A stretch of DNA of 64,000 bases from Eledone cirrhosa (GCA_964016885.1 OZ024743.1:258602001-258666000), one strand, 5' to 3'. Counted from the stretch's first letter, positions 500 to 58,767 are shown. The notes: generated from the sequence alone by a model not told the origin. Program-made: numbers and translations.

Positions 500-725
500 T
501 CAACAGGTGACCATTGTTGCCATGGGCACAAGAATGGGCCCCATCAACGCCAACTTATTTGTCAGCTTTGTTGAGGCTCAAATCTTTGCCTAATACACGG
601 ATCCTACCCTGTGATGATACAGTCATTACATGGATGACAGTATTAGTGCCACCTCACTCCCCAAGAGCTCAACTGCTTCCTCTCCTTCTTCTGCTCTTTT
701 CACCCTACTCTTGACTTCATCACTT
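500..725 (+). pseudogene. Degenerate Penelope-like RT fragment
   Basis: Frameshifted translation gives VAMGTRMGP..ANLFVSFVE and YMDD, matching PLE RT motifs 4-5. Confidence 0.55.
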
Positions 726-989
726 CAGTCCACTTCCTCTACATCTCTATTTCTATCAATCACTTGCATTGTTCCATCATCAACTGCACCTTTTTCAAAC
801 TCACTGACTCCCACTTCTACCTTGATTTCCCATCCGCATACACCACCCACACTAAATATATATATATTGATTGTGTTACACAACAAAGAAAGCTCAATGA
901 ACATTAAACTCAAAGCATGAATTATACAAATTTAAACGACATATAAAAAAATCTTTTTCATATAAACTTCTAGAATTATGTACATATCT

Positions 990-2100
990 AGTGTGGGTGA
1001 AATTCCTTAAGATCCATGGACGAGTTCTCTCCAGTGGTCTCTGTCCTTCATCATTGCTGCTGTGTCCTGCACAGCCTAGAGACCAGAGTCTGTCCTTAGG
1101 GCATCAATATATGTCATCTTCGGTCTCCCTCTTCTAGTATATACAAATTTAATATGTCCGTTTAGGAGCTCCCACAGAACCACTGAGTACAGTGTCAACT
1201 CTGAATGTCGGTGAGCATGTCCAGCTAACCTCAGTCTCCTGTGTGTTTCTTTCGAGCTGACTTTTGGGGAGCTCCCAATACAGCTCTGTGTTCTTCATCC
1301 TCAGTGTATACTGATTAATGTTCAGTGCCATCCTCAGCATTTTCATGTAGCACCCATCCACCCTCTGAGTGAGTCTTTTGGTCAGTGTCCAAGTCTCAGA
1401 CCTGTACAGCAGCACAGATTCCACTGTAGTGACGAAGAAACAGATCTTTAGGTCTTTACGAAGGTCTGATTTCTACACCAACTTCAAACTGTGACATGCT
1501 GCTCAGGCTTTGCTCTTCCTCTCCTCCACATCATCCTCTATGTTCCCAATCTTTGCTTCCAGATATAGGAAGCGGCTTCCCACCTACTTCCATAATCTTC
1601 TCTGGCTTCTTAATGTTCTCTACCAGATACTCCATCTTACTCTCATTCATTCTCAGCCCCACACTCATTGACACTGTCTTCACCTCCTGCATCAAATCCT
1701 CTACCTTCTTCACTGTGTTTGTCACCAGAACTATGTCGTCAGCAAATTCAGCATCTGATTTCTTTTTAGCCTTAACTCTCCTGCTCTGAGCCAGTGCTAC
1801 AGTAAAGCCCGAGTCCTGGTGTTTCTCCAGTGCAAGGTGCATACAATAGTCGACTGTGATGATAAAAAAATAGGTAGCCAGTGTATCTCCCTGGAGCACT
1901 CCAGCAAATATCTCAAAGGACTCCATCATCCCGTCAGGAGTAATGACTTGGGCTCTGGTGTGGTGTAGAGCGGTGTTATCAGGTCCACTATGTTCTTGGG
2001 GATTCCATATGCCTGTAAGATCTTCATCAAGCCGTGACAGTTCACAAAATCAAAGGCATTCCTGAAGTCAATGAAAATCATGACAGCAGGAAGGCTCTTA
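990..2100 (-). mobile_element. Degenerate non-LTR retrotransposon RT/C-terminal region (RTE-like, distinct from the two main families)
   Basis: ORF pieces FIDFRNAFD, GVLQGDTLATYFFII, FADDIVL and ESVLLYRSETWTL. Confidence 0.8.
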
Positions 2101-2273
2101 ATTGATATGAAAGTAATAAATGATATAAAGGTAATACACGCACATACATAAATATATAAACACACAAATATATATATGTATATATAGAAAGATATATATA
2201 AACACCCAGATATATACATATACACACAAATGAGTATGTATATATACTAATACAAAAGTATATATGCAAAGAT

Positions 2274-2343
<70 letters not shown>

Positions 2344-2345
<2 letters not shown>

Positions 2346-2482
2346 CGAAGGAAATGTGGTAAGGAACCAGGTGGACCATAACGCACCAAAGTACTCAATA
2401 CTTAGGGTAGTAGAGTGGGTAATAGGAACCAGTAAGACCCCGTCGAAACGGCTTGAGCTCAGCCGTCGGGGTCTTACTGGTT

Positions 2483-2487
<5 letters not shown>
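2344..2487. repeat. Short hairpin element with hammerhead 3' half, between (TA)n tracts
   Basis: IR 2422-2442/2467-2487. The loop contains GAAA-CGGCU..AGCCG-UC. The 3' extension is paralogous to 24863-24945. Confidence 0.6.
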
Positions 2488-2530
<43 letters not shown>

Positions 2531-2626
2531 TATATAGATAAACAAATATACTCACTTAAAGATAGAATCAAGCCAATATTGCCTAAAGCAAAATTATAGG
2601 GACCTTTTCATGAATTCCAGAAGATT

Positions 2627-5600
2627 ATCATCATCATCATCACCGTTTTACGTCCGTTCTTCCACGCTAGCATGGGTTAGACGGGTTGTCCTGTTGTGGG
2701 CAGTGTCTGGTCGGCTGACCATGCATTGCTCATACAGGAACTGATCTGGCTTGATTTCTACAGCTGGATGCCCTTCCTAACACCAACCTCATTTACAGTG
2801 AGTGCTGGGTGCTTTTTCGTGGCGCCTACACGTCCACTTTACAGTGTGGGCTGGGTGCTTTTTTGCCGTGGCACCTCCACGACCACCTTGCGGTGGGGGG
2901 GGGGGGCATATTGTTTATATGCTTCAGCATGTACCCATGGGAGGTCGGGTACCCTGTATTACTGCGTGACGCCAGAAGTCACGGTCGTGTGTCATTGACT
3001 TTGAGAGGTGTAGTTGGGTAAGGTCGGCTTTTATCACCTCATCCCAAGTCATCTTGGGTCTCCCCACTCCGCGGTTTCCATCAACTTCTAGTGCTCTGCA
3101 CCTTTTTATGCAGCTGTCATCCTTCATACGCATCACATGTCCATACCAGCGTAACCGCCTCTCCTGCACGCAGCATTTGATTCCTCTTATGCTCAGTCTC
3201 TCTCTCAATTCCTTTATGCTTTGTCGTTCACGTATATTACTGTTACACATCCATCGGAGCATGCAGGCTTCGTTTCTCTCTAATCTACGTAAGTCTTCCA
3301 CCTTCAGCGCCCAGGTCTCACTACCATGCAACATCGCTGTTCGGATACACGCATCATACAGTCTGCCTTTCATTCTGAGGGAGAAGCCTTTTGCAGCTAG
3401 CAGTGGTAGTAGTTCTCTAAACTTCTTCCATCCCGTTCTTACCCTAGTTATTGTACTTTCTGAGCACCCACCTCCGTTGCTAATTCGGTCACCTAGGTAG
3501 CAGAAGCTGTCTACTGTTTCTACAGGGCCCTCCCAGAGATTGGTGGTACTTGTTTCCTGTGGCTGTTTGCTTGCTGTTTCAGCACAGCTGCTGCATGTGA
3601 ATCCTACATTCTTAATTAAGCTTCCTGAGATCCCGCTACATCTCTTGTGTACCCATTGTTTGCATTTGGGGCAGAGAATGGAGTTCCTACCTACACCTTT
3701 CCTACATACTGAGCAAGGCCATTTCCCTGAGGGGATCTGGGTTCTGTTTTCTCGTCTACTTATAAAGACCTTAGTCTTTGTCATGTTGACTTTGAGGCCC
3801 TTTCTCTCTAGTCCCTGCTTCCAGGTTTGGAATTTATTCTCTAGTTCTACCATAGATTCAGCTATGAGTGCGAGGTCATCAGCATACAGGAGTTCCCATG
3901 GGCATCCGGTCTTAAACTCCTCCGTTATTGCCTGCAGGACTATGATGAACAGGAGAGGGCTAAGAACAGAGCCCTGGTGGACCCCAACCTGTACGCTAAA
4001 TTCCTCGCTATACTCATTGCCAATCCTAACTTTGCTGACTGCTCCCCTATACATGGCTTGTACCGCTTTCACAAGCCATTCATCTACTCCTAGTTTTCTA
4101 AGAGCCCACCAGATTACTGCACGTGGAACTCTGTCAAAGGCTTTCTCAAGGTCGACAAATGCCAAGTAGAGTGGCTTACTTTTAGCTAGGTACTTTTCCT
4201 GTAATTGCCTCACAAGGAAGAGGGCATCAGTGGTGCCTTTCCCTGGTACAAACCCAAATTGCATCTCGTCTATATTCACCCGGTCCCTAATCAGCTGTGC
4301 TATAACTCTTTCTGTTACTTTCATGACCTGGTCCATCAACTTTATACCTCTATAGTTTCCTCTATCTAGTGCATCGCCTTTACCTTTGTAGCAGTTGACA
4401 ATGATGCTACTGCACCAATCTTTTGGTATGGCCCCCTCTAGTATTACCTGGTTAATGATACGTGTGGTTATAGTGTGACCTACAGACCCAGATGCCTTCA
4501 GCATCTCGGCAGCTATACCCGATGGACCGGTTGCCTTCCCTATCTTCATATCTCTGATTGCCTTACTTACTACGCTGCCGCTGACTTGTACTGCTGGTCC
4601 CTCTATAGGGTCTACGTGGGGTAGGGTCTCTTCTTCCCATGCATTCTCCTCATTTAGTAATCTATCATAATGACTCTTCCATGCATCTTTCTTCTCAGCA
4701 CTTGTGAGGGCAAGCTCACCTTTATCATTCCGGATACACTTCTCTCCAATGACATCACAACTATCTCTGACACACTGCCTCGCAATCTTGAATACCTCCT
4801 GTTTCTGGTCCTCACGTTGTAAAACATGCTTGAATTTTCTATCCTCTGCTTCCCTCCTAGCTAAGTATACTTGTCGCCTAGCTTCCCTCTTGGTCTCTAT
4901 GTAATGTACCCTGCTCCCCCCGTTCTTCCATTCTTTCCATGCCTGTCTCTTGGCCTTGACTGCTTCATCTACCTTATTGTTCCACCACCAAGTCACTCTC
5001 CTCCTGCTTGAGGTCTTACTCCAGCCACAAACCTCATCCGTCGCCTCTAGTAAGTTATTTTTTAGGAACTCCCAGTTCTCTTCTACGTTAAATGTCTTTA
5101 TCTGTTCTTCTTTACTGTCGTAGGCGTTGAGTAAAATATCTTTAAATCTGTTACTGGTTGAGGGGACTTTCAGCTTCCAGATCTTTCTTCTCCAGGTTGG
5201 CCTCTGTTTCAGGGCTCGTCTAGTTCTGACCGTGAGGTCGCTGACAACTAAGCTATGTTGGGATGTACATTCCTCACTAGGGAAGGCTTTTGTGTTTACG
5301 ACCGTCCATCTGTCACGTCCTCTGATGAGGATAAAATCTAACTGACTAGAGTGCTCCCCTGATCTATAGGTGATCAGGTGGTTGTCGGGTTTTTTAAAGT
5401 TTGTGTTACATATCGACATGTCATTGGCGTCGCAGAATTCTAGAAGTCTGAATCCTTCCTCATTCCTTGTGCCAACTCCATGGCCTCCATGTACTCTATT
5501 GAAGCCGTCGCAGTGTTTACCTACGTGTCCGTTAAAATCTCCTGCAATGATTAGGAAGTCCTTGTCGTCTGTTAGAGCAGTAGTGTGTATTAGGGACTCG

Positions 5601-10160: not shown

Positions 10161-10709
10161 ATAAAATATTAAACAAATAATGAATAAACAATTCCTTATA
10201 TTAAACAAAAGAAGTTCATTATTTAACGATCGTTTCTAGGGTATATATGTGTTATAATTGGTATGCATATTCAACAGATCTATGTACAAAATTATACAAA
10301 ATTATACAAATTATCAAGATTAAATATACATACCTAACACATATATACGCCGTCTTCAGAAATAATCATTATTTCTGAAGACGGCGTATATATGTGTTAG
10401 GTATGTATATTTAATCTTGATAATTTGTATAATTTTGTATAATTTTGTACATAGATCTGTTGAATATGCATACCAATTATAACACATATATACCCTAGAA
10501 ACGATCGTTAAATAATGAACTTCTTTTGTTTAATATAAGGAATTGTTTATTCATTATTTGTTTAATATTTTATCTTGACTCTGTATACCGTTTATCTTTC
10601 ACCGAAAGTGGTTTTTCATTACATCTCTTCTTTCCATGATATCCGGAATACATTGAGTTCTTCATACGGATTGGACACTACCGTAAACTCTTGGTAGATT
10701 TATCTACAT
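10161..10709. repeat. Near-perfect 413-bp palindrome (10161-10573) plus a unique 3' extension, flanked by (TA)n
   Basis: Arms are reverse complements around position 10367. Confidence 0.95.
10366..10518 (+). ncRNA. Type I hammerhead ribozyme with long stem II (mirror copy on minus strand about 10217-10366)
   Basis: Stem I UCAUUAUUU/AAAUAAUGA, core CUGAAGA 10375-81, GAAA 10498-501, palindromic CGAUCG stem III, GUU site. Confidence 0.75.
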
Positions 10710-11310: not shown

Positions 11311-11554
11311 GAAGTATTTCCGTAGGAAAGGTAAAGGAAAAGAGAGTGCTCTATGTAGGCTAGAGTGCTTTTTAGTTATGTAATAAACAACATAAGATAA
11401 TTATTTCATTTACCAGTGGTTTCTGGAAGACATATATTTATGTTTATCTTCATTTATCTTATTTTTCTGGTGAATGAAGACAGACATAAATATATATCTT
11501 CAAGAAACCACTATTAAATGAAATAATTATCTTATGTTGTTTATTACATAACTA
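11311..11554. repeat. Inverted-repeat element with decayed hammerhead, same family as 58409-58676
   Basis: Arms about 11374-11454/11472-11554. CUGGUGA 11467-73 and GAAA-CCACUAU-UA 11504-16. Confidence 0.75.
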
Positions 11555-11635
11555 TATATATATATATCGATATAGATGTATATACACACGTATATATATA
11601 TATTATGATGATGATGATGATGATGATGATTATTT

Positions 11636-11721
11636 ATTATTAATATTCGAAAAACTCAGATTACATTTATTGTATCCAGCCATGTAGAGCGATAAACTAT
11701 TTGTTACTTTATATATATATA

Positions 11722-11759
<38 letters not shown>

Positions 11760-12301
11760 TATATATATATAAAGTAACAAATAGTTTATCGCTCTACATG
11801 GCTGAATACAATAAATGTAATCTGAGTTTTTCGAATATTAATAATAATGTTTGATTTGTTTGCAATTATGCAAACAGCCTCTTTAAGCCATGTCAGTAGA
11901 ATAACCCTATCATTCTTGTTCTTGTGTTGGCATATAAACAGAATGGCAGGCACTAATGTTTCTGGGTGATTACCTTTCATCAGTACTGTATACTGCTTAC
12001 CTGCCAACTGTCAGAGCTAGTGAAAATATAGGATATTTTCCTAAATATACAGTGACTGATTGGATTGATTTGCATATTAACAGACTGCCTGATCAACAGA
12101 TCTGCATATTAGCAGACCCACTGATCAGCCAGATTTACATATCAACAGATAGGCCAGTCAGATTCATGTATACAAGTGATTAATGGCCGGCTTTGCCATA
12201 TTCTAACAAATAGTTTTATCGCCCTACATGGCTGAATACAATAAATGTAATCTGAAGTTTTCGAATATTAATAATAATATTTGATTCGTTTGCAATTATG
12301 C

Positions 12302-24722: not shown

Positions 24723-24992
24723 GGACATCCTGTTTTAAGGGCCATTATTATTCCTGTCATAAATTCCAGTTGCATTTTCTATAATGAGCGTTATATCTCT
24801 GTTATTACATATTATGTTAAATTAAAGAAATATATATATATGTGTGTGTGAGTATATATATATAACGAAGGAATTGTGGTAAGGAACCAGATGGACCATA
24901 ATGCACCAGAGTACTCAATTCTGCCGCGGGGTCATACTTTTTCCTATATATGCATATATGATGATGATGATATATATATATATATATATATA

Positions 24993-25538
<546 letters not shown>

Positions 25539-31775: not shown

Positions 31776-32872
31776 GTGTGTACATGCATATATCTATAAA
31801 TATATGTATACATATATACATATATATATATATATAAAGATCAATAAAATATTTAGTTTTAAACAGTAACTTACTGACTGCTGTGTGTATTTTTGTTTGT
31901 TTTTATATTTATATATGTTTATACGTGATTGTGTGAGCATATGCTTACAAATAAATATTCATATTTATATGTTTTATGTATGTATATGTATGTGTATACA
32001 GGAATATATATATATCCTATATATATATATATGTATTATATTGGCAACATGACCCTCCCAAAGTATAACAATATCGGTTTCAACACACGATTTCAGATAA
32101 AGAATCTTGCTAAACAAATTCAGAAACGAAATATTATATATATATTGTATATATATATATTTATATATATATATATTATATGTTGTATATATATATTTAT
32201 ATATACAAATAAAGATTCAGCAAGAATCGCATTTTGGCGGGCAGGAAAGGCGAAGCGAAATGCAAAAATCAGAAATTATACTGCAAAGTGGTCAATAGTT
32301 AAAAACCAGAGCTAAACAATGTGTCAAGAAGCTATACAAAACTGAAAAGGTGGTCAAGAAGGCATTAACCACCCAAGCCAAAAACCAAATCAAGCTAAAC
32401 AAGTCAAAACAAAATAAATGATAACCAAACCTGGACTCCCGGAATTGCTGTTAAAATCCGATGTAGAGTTTCTGTGACACCTAAATCAAAATACAGTCTG
32501 CTTAAAAATATAAGCTTTGGGTATAATGATCGAACAAGGAATATCACGTTATCAACAGGTATTTCGCTCTGTACCAAATAAGTGAATGACACGGTGGTAA
32601 GTTAAACCAAGTGTGGAAATCACAAGGGGAATAACCCCAGATTTTGGCAAAGTAATTCAGTAAGTGTATATCATGCAAAAAATAGCATAAATAGCACAAA
32701 TCGAATAAGTTCTCAACCGGGTGGTTTTAAAATAAACTTATGCAATTAACCTGTCAATAGAAATTATTAACAAGTTAATTGTAAGACACGGGAGATTAAT
32801 ACAAATATTGTATATATATTGTATATATATATTTATATATATATTGTATATATATAGAGTATATATATATTT

Positions 32873-33436
32873 ATATTATAATTGAATATAAAAGAAAAAC
32901 GAACACAGATATAGACATATATGTTTTCAAATCGCAAGGGACCAGATTCGCTAAGGAGAAAATGTTGAATAAACCTGGCTGCTATTTTTAGTGGTGTAAA
33001 TTTGTGAGACACGCTAAGATACCATGTGCGTTATCATATATAGCACACTATTCAGTTTCTTAATATACTTAGATGTGTCTAGGATACTAATTCTTCACCC
33101 ACTGATGAGCAAGAATTGGTATTTCTATTCACAATTAATATTGCGAAACAGCACCAAGAGCTGTCTGGGTGATTAGTAGTTACCACAATTACGGTTTGTA
33201 TTTATTTTCTTGATTTTTTTCTTAAATTTAGACAGGCAAACCCTATTGTCTATAGTTAGTATTCTTTTTACCTTAGCGAATCTGGGCCCTTGCGATTTGA
33301 ACACATATATGTATATATCTGTGTTCGTTTTTCTTTTATATTCAATTATAATATACGGCTCGGAAAAATCTTTTTCTTAGAGCTATTTTATTGTAAGAGA
33401 CTATTTTGAGTTTCTACCTCAATATATACCTTTGAT
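32873..33436. repeat. Inverted-repeat element enclosing an intact hammerhead
   Basis: Arms about 32873-32970/33265-33355, right extension, flanked by (TA)n. Confidence 0.85.
33095..33172 (+). ncRNA. Canonical type I hammerhead ribozyme
   Basis: Stem I UCACCCA/UGGGUGA, CUGAUGA 33102-08, stem II GCAA..UUGC, GAAA 33145-48, stem III CAGC/GCUG, GUC site ending at 33165. Confidence 0.9.
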
Positions 33437-33461
33437 ATATATTTATGTATATATTTGTATA

Positions 33462-33509
<48 letters not shown>

Positions 33510-33549
33510 GTCTAACCCATGCTAGCGTGGAAAATGGACGTTAAACGAA

Positions 33550-33580
<31 letters not shown>

Positions 33581-33658
33581 TTATATATATATTTATATAT
33601 ATATATATTTATATATACGATATTAAATAAATGGAAACTATATTTATAAAACCATATT

Positions 33659-33724
33659 TATTTCATTATATATATTTCAGGGATATCATATTAAAAATAT
33701 GGTATGCCTTCTTCAGACAAAATA
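33659..33724 (-). ncRNA. Type I hammerhead in the PLE 3' terminal repeat
   Basis: Reverse complement of 37095-37160. Confidence 0.75.
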
Positions 33725-33982
33725 CAATATAAACAGTCTTATAAATAGATAGATTTGACATACCTTACAACTTCAACTTCCATTTAAAAAGTTGATTTGG
33801 TAGTGAAAAATGTTAGGGACAGTTATAAAAAGAAAGAAAGAAAAAAAGCGAAGAAAAAGAAGAAATGCATGCAACTAAACAGAGAGAGATAGATATAGAG
33901 AAATAGATAGAGAGAAGAAATTCGTGTAAAGAAACAGAGAGAGAGAGATAGAGAGAGAAAAAACACAGAGGGAGATAGATAG

Positions 33983-34034
<52 letters not shown>

Positions 34035-35149
34035 AAATAGAGAGAGATAGATATAGATAGAGATAGAGAGAAAGAAAATAGGTAGTTGGGCACCAGTTGA
34101 ATGACGTATCAATGATATATTTATTTATTTATTTATTTATTTAGTTCTAGTATTAAGGTAGAGAGAGATATATGTGGTTAGGAGAGAAAACAGCCGTTAC
34201 ATAGAGAGAAAAGAAAAATGTCCAGAGATAAACGAGGCAGATTTAAAACATTATGTTTCATCAATGTAAAAATATCAATTCGTATTAATTAGGTATTATA
34301 ATGTAAATATCAGTATTCATGAATGAGACACGTATCAATAATGTGTGAAAAATAATGATCATATGTCTAGTTTAAAATTCCTAGGTTTATATCAGAACTG
34401 AGATAAAAAAAAAACTGAGATAAAAAAAAACTGAGATAAAAAACTGAGATAAAAAACATCAAAAAAAATTGAAATACATAAGTATATATGCACTTTCATG
34501 AAAAAAGAAAAAGAAAAAGAAAATAGAAGGTTATCCCAGATTCGATACTATAGACTTCCATGTGGATTTACGTGATCAACTCTGCAAATTCCTATTTCAC
34601 ATGAAAACATTCTCATTGTGCTATAAAAATTCTAGTATACATATATGTGTACATACACACAAATATATATAGAATCTACATTAATTTTAACAATACTATT
34701 CTTGTCTTTACTCTACATGATTATCGTTCAAGCATAAATAGACAACAGATATCAATATATCAATAAAATTATCAAAAAATTAAAAAATATTAAAAATAAA
34801 ACACAGTATGCCCCGCAAATCAACCACAGAGATCAACCCTTCAAAATTAATTGACAATATATTGCCAAGTTCATTATAAGCATCAGAATCAAAAGCAAAC
34901 AAAACCAAAATTATTTACCAAATCCTGTCTAGCAGAAATCATTCCAAAAGTTTAGGATACCCATTTGATCTACAGATGGTCTTATATTTATTATAGAAGT
35001 TTATCTAGTGTAAAATTTATTCGATATATTTGGAGCATCAGCTTTTAGGGTAGTTTAATTATTCATGAAGAATGTTTAAAAAAAAAAAAAAGAAATCGAA
35101 AGATTTATCGGCGAGTTTCATAAATAATTATAAATCATAAGTAAATATA

Positions 35150-36790
35150 CTACATTTTAAATTCATATTTATATTTAAAAGTTGAGTTCAATCTATGTCT
35201 GCAGCAACTGAATAAATTTGTCCGTAAATTAAGGGAATTTTTAGATTTTAGTATAAAGAATATCTCCTCCGCGCAGAGGTCACATGTCTCAGAGGATGAA
35301 TTAAAAGGAATCCCTCTTGAGACTATATTCCAAGCCGTCGAATATCCAACGTTATCATGCTTAAGTTGCCAGAGTAAGCCTGATAGTGATGTTGAAGATT
35401 TTTTGCTTGGATCTGTGAAAGAATTCTTGTGGTTATTATAGCGAAGTTTAAATTCTGTCGAGGTGGAACCAACATAGTTAAAAGAATTTAAGTCCGTTTT
35501 AACATTACAGTTGTATATTATATTTTTAACTAAGCAATTGTTATTTAACGGACATTTAGATCTATCTCTACAGTTACATTTGTTTACTTGGATATTATTT
35601 ATGCTATTATCGGTATTTTGGCTAGGTTTTAAATTCCTATTATTTATTCTATTAATATTTTGTGCTAAATTTTTGGTGGATGAGTAAGTTAATTTTATAG
35701 TATGTCTATTGAAAATTGAGTGATACCTATGTGTTCTAGGGAAGCGATTATCAAGAGCATTAAAAAATAGTTTAGCGATGTGGGTTTTAATGTTTAGTGA
35801 GAAAGGGGGGGCAAACCATATTATATTCCTAGTTCTATTTCTTTTTTGGCTTTTGGAATTATTGTAATGCTTTCTATTATAGTTGTTAAAGTTGTTGCCG
35901 TAATTAAAATTGTTGTTATTTTGGTTAGTTTGTCTATTATTATCTATGTACATAATTGTATCACTATATCCTGCTCTAGCTAACGCCTCATTGTAATACT
36001 GGGCTTTTTCGTCGAAAATCTTTTTATTAGATGAGATTCTAGAGATACGTTTTTGAACAGAGTTCACTATAGTATTTTTAACAGATCTGGGGTGGTTAGA
36101 GTTAAAACTGACATAGTTTAAGTTTTCATTCAACTTGTGAAATGGATAGTGAAGAAATGTGTTGAGATTTAATGTTACATCTAGGAAATTGACTATTCTA
36201 TGGTTATTCTCAATTTCTATTTTTAGATTAAAGTAATTAAAAAATTGTGTAATTTGTTTTCTTTTTCTATTTAGTTCAGAATTATTATTTTCAATAAGTA
36301 AAGCATGTCATCTCTATATAAACCTCCGGTAGCACCGGGTATTTTCCTATGCAGCGAATTGATTATAAATAAGCCCACAAGGTCAGTTACCTGAGCTGAG
36401 TCGGATGATCCCATAGTAATGTCGAAATTGTTATCTCTATCTGCTCTGGTCCATAGTTGGTCATTAAATTCTATCAATGTTTTCCTAGCCGATAATATAA
36501 TGTGTATTTCATTGCTAGTTAGGTCTGTATGTTTGAATGCGTAATTTAGTGCCTTATTTAGTAGATTAGGGGTAATAGATGAATAATAGTTAGCAATATC
36601 TAGTTGAATAAATTTATTATTATTGTTATATTTAATTTCTTTAAACCACTCAATAACCTCTCCAGTTCCCTTCCACAAGCTCAAGTTAGGTAAACAATTC
36701 AAGTTTTTAATTTGCTGTATCACCCTGTCTAGAATGTTTTTGCTTAGTTTACCCAGGTCAGATTTTGATGGTGCAATCAATCTGACTGGC
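35150..36790 (-). pseudogene. PLE RT-GIY-YIG endonuclease ORF (broken near 36270 and 36135)
   Basis: QLDIANYYSSI, ITMGS, LYRDD, SNHP, WFAPPFS, CNCRDRSKCPLNNNC, IIYNC..YVGST..FKLRYNNH, CDLCAEE and CRH. Confidence 0.92.
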
Positions 36791-36800
36791 AGGTCATTTT

Positions 36801-36838
<38 letters not shown>

Positions 36839-37094
36839 ATCTATCTCCCTCTGTGTTTTTTCTCTCTCTATCTATCTCTCTCTGTTTCTTTACATGAATT
36901 TCTTCTCTCTATCTATCTCTCTATATCTATCTCTCTCTGTTTAGTTGCATGCATTTCTTCTTTTTCTTCGCTTTTTTTCTTTCTTTCTTTTTATAACTGT
37001 CCCTAACATTTTTCACTACCAAATCAACTTTTTAAATGGAAGTTGAAGTTGTAAGGTATGTCAAATCTATCTATTTATAAGACTGTTTATATTG

Positions 37095-37160
37095 TATTTT
37101 GTCTGAAGAAGGCATACCATATTTTTAATATGATATCCCTGAAATATATATAATGAAATA
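37095..37160 (+). ncRNA. Type I hammerhead in the inverted PLE terminal copy
   Basis: Stem I UAUUUUGU/AUGAAAUA, CUGAAGA 37103-09, stem II AGG..CCU, GAAA 37141-44, palindromic UAUAUA, AUA site. Confidence 0.75.
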
Positions 37161-37324
37161 AATATGGTTTTATAAATATACTTTCCATTTATTTAATATC
37201 GTAAATATACTCCAAATACTTGTTGAGTGCTTTTATATCAGTTATAAATATTTACTCGTTGTAACCCAACAATTTAAATAAAACTTTGCATATATTTATA
37301 TATATATATTTATATATATATATT

Positions 37325-37417: not shown

Positions 37418-37428
37418 TTATATATATA

Positions 37429-38492
37429 CAGGGTGCGGACGATATTTGTTCGCAAGATTACTGTCTAGGAAAATGTAGCACAGTAGTTTTATTTTTTAAG
37501 ATGTATTTTTCAAACTTGGGTCAGTTTGTCTTCATCACTTGTTCTTTCGATCTCACTCGATAAACCCGCCATTGGCTTTGATGACAGCCTCAAGGCGGCC
37601 TTGGAACCGGCTACAGGCCTTCGTCACTGTCCCCCAAATTAGGCCCCTAAAGGCACTTGTGATCCTGACCTTCAGATCGTCTTTCATATTGCAGCTAGAT
37701 CTGTTGGTGTCTCGTTCCAATGCACACCACACAAAGAAGTCGAGGGGTTTGCAGTCAGGCGAGCTGGGAGGCCAGATGTCAGGTGAAGTGTGGTCGACAA
37801 AGTTCTCTGACAGCCAGGTTTGGGTCTTTCGGCTGGTATGGCAGGACGCTGAGTCTTATTGCTACACGTACGGCCTACCTGCAGCTACCTGGTCGATCCA
37901 GGGCTTTACTACTTCGCTCAGAATGCGGATGTAGCCATCGGTGTTCAGCTTGAGGCCCTCAGGGAAGAAGTGAGGTGGCATGATGTCACCTTGACTGCTG
38001 ACGACACCTAAGACCAATGTTGTCGCTGGAAACTTTGTCTGCATGACTCTGGGCACGTCTTTGGATGAGACAGCAAGCCACCTGTTGTTCTGGGAGTTGA
38101 TCTTCTGGTCTTGGCAGAAGTTTTTCTCGTCGGAGAAAAACCACAGCATGTCTGGCCCCAGTGGGTGTTTCAATTTGTTGATCAGCTTCTTTGCGTGCTT
38201 CAGTCGCTTTTCTTGCATCTCCTTCGAGCGAAATTGTCATTTCCTCATCTTGTATGAAACGTAGCGAATGTCTTCATGTACCACCAGCCTAATGAGCTTT
38301 TCATCCATGCCTTTCTCCCTTGCAATGGCACTCATTGACTTGCTAGGTTCATTGTTGATGATATCCTGAACTTCAGCAACTAACTCAGGCGTTCTGAAGG
38401 CATCAGATCGTCGATCATGTGTTTTCCTCTCTGATGTTGCTTCGTAGTCGAATCCTGAATCTTCCAATTCCTTTCTTACCTTTTCCACCATT
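37429..38492 (-). mobile_element. DD37D (maT) Tc1/mariner transposon, 5'-truncated pseudogene
   Basis: TA-CAGGGTG terminus. WFFSDEKNF, then Q*DSASCH...WPPSSPDCKPLD with 37 residues between the last two Asp. Two in-frame stops near 37860. Confidence 0.9.
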
Positions 38493-39146
38493 CTAGTTTC
38501 AAGCTTATTAGCTATCGTCAGCAACGTATACCTTCCTGCCAGATGGTTGAACGTCTGCAAGTATATACTTTTCTTATGCATATTAACGGCTGAGCAGCCT
38601 AATTTGCATATCGAGTGAGTTAATCGGCCGGGGTACTGAAAACGATAAACGGAAAAAATGAAACGAAATTTCATTTCTCACTCTTAGTACGGCTGTTACT
38701 TAAATATAAGTATGTATACGTACATACATATATGTATACAGACGTACAGTAGTATATATATATATACATACATGCACACATATATATATATGTACGTATC
38801 TATATATCGGTATCTATGTATCGGTACCCCGGCCGATTAACTCACTCAATATGCAAATTAGGCTGCTCAGCCGTTAATATGCATAAGGAAAGTATATACT
38901 TTCAGACGTTCAACCATCTGGCAGGAAGGTATACGTTGCTGACGATAGCTAATAAGCTTGAAACAAGTACAGCGTTCCTTTGCCAGTGTTGAACAAATGA
39001 GCAACGATGGCTGTTCGGGATGTTTGTTTACAAACACACCGAGCATATAATAAATGTTCTGTGAATCCATAGGTACATATATATATATGTGTGCATGTAT
39101 GTATATATATATACATACTACTGTACGTCTGTATACATATATGTAT
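38493..39146. repeat. Double inverted-repeat element with hammerhead
   Basis: IR 38493-38639/38821-38967 and IR 38705-38800/39069-39146. Confidence 0.85.
38933..38975 (+). ncRNA. Minimal type I hammerhead
   Basis: Stem I ACGUUG/CAGCGU, CUGACGA 38939-45, stem II AGCU-AAUA-AGCU, GAAA, CAAG (CUAG in the mirror arm), GUA site. Confidence 0.8.
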
Positions 39147-39232: not shown

Positions 39233-39237
<5 letters not shown>

Positions 39238-39637
39238 TGTAGGAGGTGAGTTTTATTGTACCACAATAAAGCAATGCAAATATCGGATAAGTAGCACTCT
39301 ACAGTTTGTAGGACTGGAGTATAAATAATATAAGATCAAAAGATGGTTAAAAGAGTTCCAAGTATTTTATTATGCGCATTTCAAAAACAAATGTCATCAT
39401 GAGATGATATCTGCGTTTTCATCAGATAAAATAGGGATACATGATATGAAGGTTAAAAAACACTTGTGAATAGTGAATATGTTGATTTAAAACTTCACTA
39501 TTCACAAGTGTTTTTTTTAACCTTCAGATCATGTATCCCAATTTTATCTGATGAAAACGCAGATATCATTTATGATGATATTTGTTTTTGAAATGCGCAT
39601 AATAAAATACTTGGAACTCTTTTAACCATCTTTTGAT

Positions 39638-39643
<6 letters not shown>
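39233..39643. repeat. Inverted-repeat element with hammerheads in both arms
   Basis: Arms about 39328-39477/39494-39643 and a left extension, flanked by (TA)n. Confidence 0.9.
39541..39608 (+). ncRNA. Type I hammerhead (mirror on minus strand 39364-39432)
   Basis: Stem I AUUUUAU/AUAAAAU, CUGAUGA 39548-54, long stem II, GAAA 39590-93, palindromic UGCGCA, AUA site. Confidence 0.8.
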
Positions 39644-58368: not shown

Positions 58369-58408
58369 TATATGTGATGATAATGATATATATATATATA
58401 TATATATG

Positions 58409-58670
58409 TGAAGTAATTCCATCGGAAAAGTCCAGGAAAAAAGAGTGCTCTATGTAGGCAACAGAGCTTAATTATTATTATTATGTAATAAACAACATAA
58501 GGCAATTATTCCATTTACCAGTGGTTTCTTAAAAGCAAAAGGTTTTGCTTTCAATCCTCAGAATGAAAAAATCCAGGATTTTTTCATTCTGAGGATTGAA
58601 AGCAAAACCTTTTGCTTTTAAGAAACCACTGGTAAATGGAATAATTGCCTTATGTTGTTTATTACATAAT

Positions 58671-58676
<6 letters not shown>
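58409..58676. repeat. Perfect 203-bp palindrome (58474-58676) plus a left extension, in (TA)n
   Basis: Centre at 58575 (ATCC-A-GGAT). Confidence 0.95.
58582..58641 (+). ncRNA. Type I hammerhead (identical mirror on minus strand 58509-58568)
   Basis: Stem I UUUCAUU/AAUGGAA, CUGAGGA 58589-95, stem II UUGAAAGCAAAA/UUUUGCUUUUAA, GAAA, CCACUGG, GUA site. Confidence 0.85.

Positions 58677-58767
<91 letters not shown>

Follow-up and report, generated by a model that had tools for sequence, protein, structure and literature searches.

A dead Hydra-type Penelope-like element in Eledone cirrhosa and the one-tailed, head-to-head insertions of its family

The element at positions 33618-37289 of the 64,000-nucleotide stretch of Eledone cirrhosa DNA analyzed here (the window, whose numbering is used below) is a dead, frameshifted, 5'-truncated Hydra-type Penelope-like element (PLE) that consists of two head-to-head arms inserted into (TA)n. 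It belongs to a young family whose thousands of copies permit rules of insertion to be counted: there is one tail per insertion, the two arms are coupled in length and nearly identical in sequence, and the 3' ends are fixed just ahead of a duplicated hairpin whose stem covaries among families. Such inserts probably arise when a staggered cut supplies two primers, one per strand, and both initiate reverse transcription on a single RNA, at two sites that are each marked by a predicted hairpin. PLEs are the sister group of telomerase, and their mode of insertion is described as unsettled in the excerpts of the literature on which our comparisons with published elements draw (Craig et al., 2021, PMC8557442; Frangieh et al., 2024, PMC11167929). 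Should the proposal be correct, RNA would serve as the template for both DNA strands in this route of retrotransposition; the support for this specific and testable model of the insertion step comes from genomic counts.

The features of the locus are compiled in Table 1. TA tracts border the insert on both flanks, and the recurrence of the same 15-mer on either side of it fits one insertion event. The long arm terminates without a tail at 33616-33618, while the short arm on the right carries the tail, to which up to 6 nt held in common with the TA target can be added. A second hairpin lies outside the insert; in tandem copies of the element, it is found just beyond the end of the tail. Much of this anatomy had been recognized in a first-pass annotation prepared from the sequence alone: the inverted copy of the 3' end, fused to the 5' truncation point, is borne out by 98.3% reverse-complementary identity over 411 nt (33610-34020 versus 36801-37209), and the 3' region, which had been put at about 1.5 kb, runs from the stop codon at 35150 down to 33618.

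Table 1. Features of the head-to-head PLE insertion and its target site (window coordinates)
Feature	Position	Strand	Basis or remark
Target-site duplication, left copy, 15 nt, interrupted (TA)n tract	33603..33617	+	15-mer with internal TTT recurs at 37290-37304
Long arm, 5'-truncated Hydra-type PLE	33618..36800	-	about positions 709-3841 of the natural 3841-nt unit
3' region, 1.53 kb, with (CT)n microsatellite and pLTR	33618..35149	-	from ORF stop at 35150 down to 33618
Type I minimal hammerhead, long arm	33659..33724	-	motif scan; predicted cut between 33667 and 33666
Initiator-like TCA in 3' region of long arm	~33804	-	pile-up of arm ends
Downstream frame, 385 aa stop to stop: RT thumb, CxCx5C linker, GIY-YIG-type endonuclease with CxxC and CxH	35150..36307	-	
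Upstream frame, RT core from about codon 191 (of 740) to YRDD	36271..36800 (open frame 36271-36840)	-	translation, comparison with sister copies
Head-to-head junction, TTTT (4 nt) common to both arms	36797..36800	.	window compared with L038 and the 3' region
Short inverted arm, ~405 nt	36797..37203	+	starts inside (CT)n tract, upstream of putative start site
Putative transcription start, A or C of TCAC, 186-187 nt before pLTR end	37015..37016	+	inferred from arm-end pile-up
Type I minimal hammerhead, short arm	37095..37160	+	motif scan; predicted cut between 37152 and 37153
Tail, 86 nt	37204..37289	+	in tandem copies, the start of a unit, ahead of the ORF
Predicted bulged hairpin 1 (ACUC...UU-GAGU)	37209..37232	+	5 nt past tailless end
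Target-site duplication, right copy, 15 nt	37290..37304	+	matches left 15-mer

Our hammerhead calls derive from our own motif scan rather than from Rfam, which returned no hammerhead among its 142 matches at E ≤ 1 (mostly microRNA models on repeats), and ribozyme cleavage is a prediction. The scan places both hammerheads at exactly the coordinates given by the first-pass annotation. Across 215 arm matches from the sampled loci, the only core position that varies is the free N7, and 204 of the matches have a fully paired helix I; the letter at N7 agrees between the two arms in all 59 pairs compared. We rejected self-cleavage as the source of the 5' ends in this family, as none of 102 arms ends 44-54 nt from the pLTR end (the cut lies at 49).

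Both coding frames lie on the minus strand, as had been annotated, but they do not form the single open frame that had been envisaged and start only at about codon 191 of 740. Near 36302-36305, a T run is, as assembled, one base shorter than in four other copies, a difference that may be real or an assembly error. An intact ORF of 740 amino acids is present in two sister copies (L038 and L050). The protein model of the former (pLDDT 90) finds its best Foldseek/VIA matches in TERT (E 2e-9; Z 16.5, rmsd 6.4, 346 aligned), and the RT domain is telomerase-like by this modeled structure. Sequence searches against Pfam, PHROGs and PDB named no domain for either the RT or the endonuclease (EN), and the Atlas yielded no matches. 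For the EN region, the pattern IIY...YVG, R, E, N, a matching predicted secondary structure and a by-eye likeness to published Hydra ENs point to a GIY-YIG-type enzyme; Pfam gives this region no name, and a model of the EN alone reaches a pLDDT of 54.

The family displays the pLTR with hammerhead, the tandem and inverted copies and the tail that are found in EN+ PLEs. Within this group, its motifs indicate the Hydra clade, for which RWK, DKT, CxCx5C, CxxC and CxH are the published marks (PMC8557442). The 740-residue protein has RWR at 37-39 (a K to R variant of RWK), DKT at 118 with no DKG, YRDD at 352, a CxCx5C linker (C599-C601-C607), and EN motifs between residues 599 and 726, including CDLC at 697 and CRH at 724 around the conserved E and N, so that the EN is C-terminal. 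A single Cys stands between the GIY and YIG positions, CCHH was not seen, and no insertion in the fingers is present (63 amino acids separate D258 from G321). TA tracts border both ends in nearly all flanks examined, as expected for (TA)n insertion. The natural unit of 3841 nt exceeds the size of less than 3 kb that is typical of, but not diagnostic for, Hydra elements. Among 120 homologues, DK[TS] is present in 112 and CxCx5C in 93; the closest named match comes from Argonauta hians, and in a quick unrooted RT tree without clade labels (22 of the 120 homologues plus three of our families) our families group with two Argonauta proteins. The clades that the first-pass annotation had named for comparison in an RT phylogeny (Penelope/Poseidon, Neptune and Nematis) fit these motifs poorly. 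Penelope/Poseidon lacks a Cys linker and carries DKG and CCHH, whereas a Cys linker and DKT are found here; Neptune/Nematis has a CX2-5CxxC linker and CCHH. Naiad/Chlamys, with an N-terminal EN and no canonical hammerhead, was likewise rejected. We regard this as a new family of known layout within a known clade.

Several hairpin-forming palindromes occur in the window, and the first-pass annotation had regarded the present element as their link to a mobilizing enzyme. This role could not be upheld: the copy is dead, it has no DNA-level match to anything else in the window, and the families that the window's hairpins represent are different ones, two with Penelope ORFs of their own. The family of palindrome 10161-10706 (F4), a sister family with a unit of about 6.6 kb, has a tail that runs on into the ORF in 4 of 30 loci, and its intact ORF (813 aa) is 46% identical to that of the focal family in the first 450-476 residues. 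In the family of palindrome 39233-39642 (F2), two loci (L310 and L311) have a short tailed arm, an inverted ORF and a tailless end, the very layout of 33618-37289. For the family of 58388-58677 (F3), the sole association seen was with an RT fragment that lacks the endonuclease (L312), and this family may be non-autonomous. The more general expectation that small hairpin families would be attached to PLE ORFs somewhere in the genome is consequently borne out for two of the three families tested. One-sided-tail palindromes of other families, flanked by TA, are located at 2344-2490, 11314-11554, 11634-11847, 24992-25440 and 58388-58677. Roughly 150 nt to the left of the element, a further tailed palindrome (32870-33469) has a canonical-looking hammerhead between its arms (33095-33172; fold z -2.8) and the same bulged hairpin at the start of its tail. 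The TA tract that houses the element follows the 3' end of a SINE-like repeat (33508-33580) that ends in (GAT)n and recurs across the window. Broken transposase pieces on the minus strand, presumably Tc1/mariner-like to judge from their motifs, lie immediately to its right (37428-38700).

The 3.0-Gb genome holds many young copies of the focal family: 1492 and 5069 first-look candidates were obtained, the best of them at 97-100% identity. Exact patterns retrieved 2460 tailless ends running into TA, 38 tail-to-ORF junctions and 856 tailed ends running into TA, the last with a pattern that misses two subfamilies. The order of sequences in tandem copies (pLTR, tail, about 45 nt, ATG) identifies the tail as the start of the next unit. 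For the tailless ends we inspected 9 kb around matches 31-90, i.e., 60 consecutive ends on contig C1: 51 have a tailed partner, one has a tailless partner, one is interrupted and seven are single-armed. The 40 best tail matches comprise 25 with a tailless and none with a tailed partner, nine single arms, four unresolved cases, one contig start and one internal junction. With one insertion common to both samples, exactly one arm is tailed in 75 of 76 resolved two-armed insertions, each sample being able to show one kind of exception only. The first 30 pattern matches (L100-L129, with 1.5-kb flanks) stand outside these class counts, many of their far ends being unreachable; some of them contribute to the arm-identity and flank sets. 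While a tail of about 85 bp had correctly been assigned to the inverted copy at the locus, this assignment does not hold as a rule, since the long arm may be either the tailed or the tailless one. The exception among the 76 insertions has two tailless arms (L183). In F4, one copy (L315; G000:C3:264750543-264757684) is tailed on both arms; its flanks are near-identical and inverted over at least about 540 nt, and either an inverted duplication after insertion or an artefact of the assembly may be responsible.

Of 81 flank pairs, 7 show direct duplications of 13-16 nt (8 show an informative match of any kind), as compared with 26 among 6480 mismatched pairs. A duplication of 15 nt is compatible with only 4 of the 24 informative flanks, most of which fit no single length. 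Tailed ends of subfamily B in four loci (L115, L144, L156 and L182) keep the ATGTA of the element and not the ATATA of the target, which suggests that a small number of base pairs between primer and template suffice for priming and that the start can shift by several bases.

Both 3' ends, tailless and tailed, lie 3-5 nt before a predicted stem, RCUC/GAGY, that encloses an inner helix and bears a 2-nt bulge on its 3' side. This hairpin was detected in 64 of 69 palindromes of the focal family, and the pair is also present in F4 and F5. For F2, a second hairpin was predicted beforehand and then found, in imperfect form, in one copy (L342); altogether, a second hairpin past the end of the tail is seen in four families. 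Among 41 non-redundant families of tailed palindromes from the sampled loci, a set that misses the focal family because of a mis-trimmed end, sequence anchors of the motif occur in 19 as opposed to 8.6% of shuffled tails, the motif having been designed after five families had been seen; the remaining 22 have no anchor. The outer pair is Watson-Crick in 17 of the 19 anchored families, and inner bases pair in 45 of 57 cases against 29.8 ± 3.1 when 5' sides are combined with 3' sides from other families, a permutation test that related families inflate. On their own, the two hairpins fold weakly (z -1.2 and -1.1). By eye, the published consensus of Hydra-1_Ajap has two such stems ahead of the ORF, and Hydra-2_Ajap and Hydra-2_Amil each have one close to the 3' end.

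The two arms of an insertion resemble each other far more closely than arms of different insertions do: the arm-to-arm distance is 0.67% within and 4.7% across insertions (69 pairs). Sixteen alleles private to one insertion are present on both of its arms, and 51 alleles occur on a single arm. Of the sixteen, only 2 are A to G changes, which lends no support to ADAR-type marks. Arm lengths span less than 50 nt to 4.4 kb. In the 51 two-armed copies, of which ten had their arm pairs set by hand, the longer arm is tailless in 25 and tailed in 12, and in 14 the arms are within 15 nt of each other. The lengths are coupled when split at 190 nt (26/1/8/16, Fisher p 2e-6), a cut-off chosen post hoc after the pile-up described below had been seen. 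Collectively, arm identity, coupling and the one-tail rule favor one RNA that is read twice, although a single active source locus or later conversion could explain part of the pattern.

According to the model that we prefer, a staggered cut would be made in (TA)n, and both target strands would prime reverse transcription on a single RNA. Two enzyme molecules would bind the two hairpins, the tail would correspond to the spacing between these, each cDNA would halt separately, and the cDNAs would then be joined through 0-4 common bases or a short filler. In L1 twin priming, two primers stem from one target break and the second anneals within the RNA, which leads to non-overlapping segments; here, in contrast, a single 3' segment is represented in both arms, copied from two fixed sites. 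Applied to Hydra-type elements at large, our model would entail obligatory double priming on a single RNA, a hairpin pair that positions two RTs, cDNA starts 3-5 nt upstream of each hairpin, a tail that equals the spacing, and single-armed copies as failed or resolved events; toward this broader claim we lean by a narrow degree.

The best-surviving alternative, which we nevertheless judge unlikely, invokes two RNA molecules from the same source locus, one per strand, held in an asymmetric complex that forces site 1 on one strand and site 2 on the other. No strand displacement on a common template would be needed, and near-identical arms would follow if one locus were active per cell; the private alleles found on both arms, however, remain unexplained unless the sources are very many. 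An extra rule would also be required to obtain 75 mixed pairs in 76, and the short partner of 26 of the 27 tailless arms of at most 190 nt would have no explanation.

The 5' ends of the arms bear on how the small palindromes come about. In the focal family, 23 of 102 arm ends fall 179-189 nt upstream of the pLTR end, at a TCAC, versus 2 at 190-200 nt. Comparable pile-ups occur at TCAT in F2 (175-176 nt; 13 of 22 tailless arms) and F4 (205-208 nt; 6 of 11 arms), whose loci were picked by likeness to a query beginning near the site, a choice that biases the tailed arms but not the tailless arms counted. The YCA context is thus common to three families, and an initiator within the pLTR has been published for Penelope (PMC2377424; PMC3846280), with a TATA/Inr-like TCACT in the pLTR of Pen2a_Av (PMC3846280). 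We take it as likely, from the position and sequence of the pile-up, that the initiator-like TCA marks an RNA start rather than random truncation. The small palindromes would then be run-off products: the hairpin pair near the RNA 5' end would be used, and both cDNAs would run off at the start site. Full-length junction copies behave otherwise, as only 3 of 30 begin 179-194 nt from the pLTR end and 14 of 30 reach beyond 200 nt (one copy, L219, was dropped as a TA-run artefact). One start site can therefore not bound the long templates; as these pass it, long arms would need a template in which the hairpin pair lies downstream of the 3' region, i.e., a multi-unit RNA formed by tandem read-through or a circular RNA.

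The first-pass annotation had interpreted the small palindromes as the same insertion product with more extreme 5' truncation. That they form one head-to-head class with the larger inserts holds (both arms measure at most 200 nt in 26 of the 51 two-armed copies, and the ORF is reached in 13), but the palindromes mostly end at, or just short of, a site that is fixed for each family. Twin priming with extreme random truncation, in which the pile-up would reflect a pause at an RNA structure, strikes us as rather improbable. It would accommodate the broad range of lengths, the many arms that end short of the site and the 14 full-length copies that run past it. The sharp edge between 189 and 190 nt, the same YCA context in three families, the coupling of the arms and the finding that partners of site-passing long arms seldom end at the site run counter to it.

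Truncation points, junctions and the tailed arm were tabulated over genomic copies, as had been suggested on the basis of the locus. Among 41 junctions measured, 25 overlap by 0-4 nt, and 16 contain 1-81 nt of filler, which includes copied arm sequence. Each arm holds sequence absent from its partner at the locus and in 25 of the 51 copies, and two separately primed cDNAs joined head-to-head, as originally surmised, are favored for this reason. Fold-back of a single cDNA, or its template switch onto itself, with the inverted arm as a DNA copy, or a later homogenization of the arms, is very doubtful: near-identical arms, symmetric small palindromes and arm-derived fillers would follow from it readily, yet at the locus and in the same 25 copies the tail is missing from the longer arm and the upstream part from the tailed one, so that copying of one arm as DNA could not have produced its partner, and the second fixed end before hairpin 1 would be left without a cause. 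It is scarcely credible that the palindromes, abundant as they are (at the sampled rate of 26 in 60, they would account for about 1,070 of the 2,460 exact tailless ends), are MITE-like elements that were multiplied whole from a palindromic master and share no origin with the ORF-bearing inserts, as almost every center differs in arm lengths, overlap and filler, and palindromes are present in all three subfamilies.

Several elements of this picture are already in print, namely the inverted copy, the one-sided tail, opposite-strand hammerhead pairs and the use of two start sites. The closest relatives are the C-terminal EN+ elements of the Hydra clade (Craig et al., 2021, PMC8557442; Hydra-1_Obim and Hydra-1_Ajap), which share the order of an RT followed by a C-terminal endonuclease (a candidate GIY-YIG domain in our family), RW(K/R), DKT, CxCx5C, CxxC, CxH, a canonical hammerhead and the (TA)n target. 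At 3.84 kb with a 1.5-kb 3' region, our unit is larger than those of the clade, which are generally below 3 kb, and its 86-nt tail exceeds the 30-40 bp quoted for PLEs. Penelope-13_HM is listed with an inverted 5'-truncated copy. The excerpts of PMC8557442 mention neither a rule of one tail per insertion nor a hairpin in duplicate nor palindromes formed by run-off. EN+ PLEs share the head-to-head layout, the inverted 5'-truncated copy, the tail on one inverted pLTR and a short target-site duplication (PMC8557442; PMC3846280); their tail is called optional or often one-sided, whereas here it was counted, and the duplications of 13-16 nt, common bases included, are longer than the 8-10 bp in A. 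vaga. In Schistosoma, dual opposite-strand minimal hammerheads 100-700 bp apart, similar to our small palindromes in their short opposite-strand arrangement, were ascribed to truncated PLEs (Cervera and De la Pena, 2014, PMC4209133).

For the PAc element of Anolis carolinensis, a member of the Poseidon clade, in vitro experiments revealed that both strands are cut and extended, that two internal start sites bound the tail, and that the start site does not differ between the strands (Frangieh et al., 2024, PMC11167929). The first two findings support our model, and the third speaks against it. The two start sites bounding the tail, the AT-rich target and the dispensability of hammerhead cleavage are paralleled by our family. 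PAc belongs to a different clade, however, and its starts lie within the ORF in one AC-rich stem-loop, whereas both sites here are upstream of the ORF and each is followed by a hairpin of its own; the excerpts of the PAc paper assign no site to either arm. In the literature searched, subscription journals and Repbase notes aside, we found no published one-tail count, duplicated hairpin or run-off reading. With an intact ORF of 740 amino acids and a short, defined RNA signal at hand, the model of one RNA with two starts is testable in the published in vitro assay.

At the junction in F4 (L314 and L319), both hairpins carry long inserts in the inner helix (65 and about 105 nt) but retain the outer stem and the bulge, and the putative start in these copies falls exactly where hammerhead helix I begins. 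Another class of palindromes with tails has AC-rich tails of 35-60 nt without the RCUC/GAGY hairpin (L071:718-1409, L085:762-892, L081:2577-3141, L263:974-1221 and others) and probably represents another PLE clade with a different signal. Beside or inside sampled insertions, we also noted two intact-looking non-LTR RT ORFs of 1086 and 1259 aa, stop to stop (L090:3117-6377 and L095:5816-9595).
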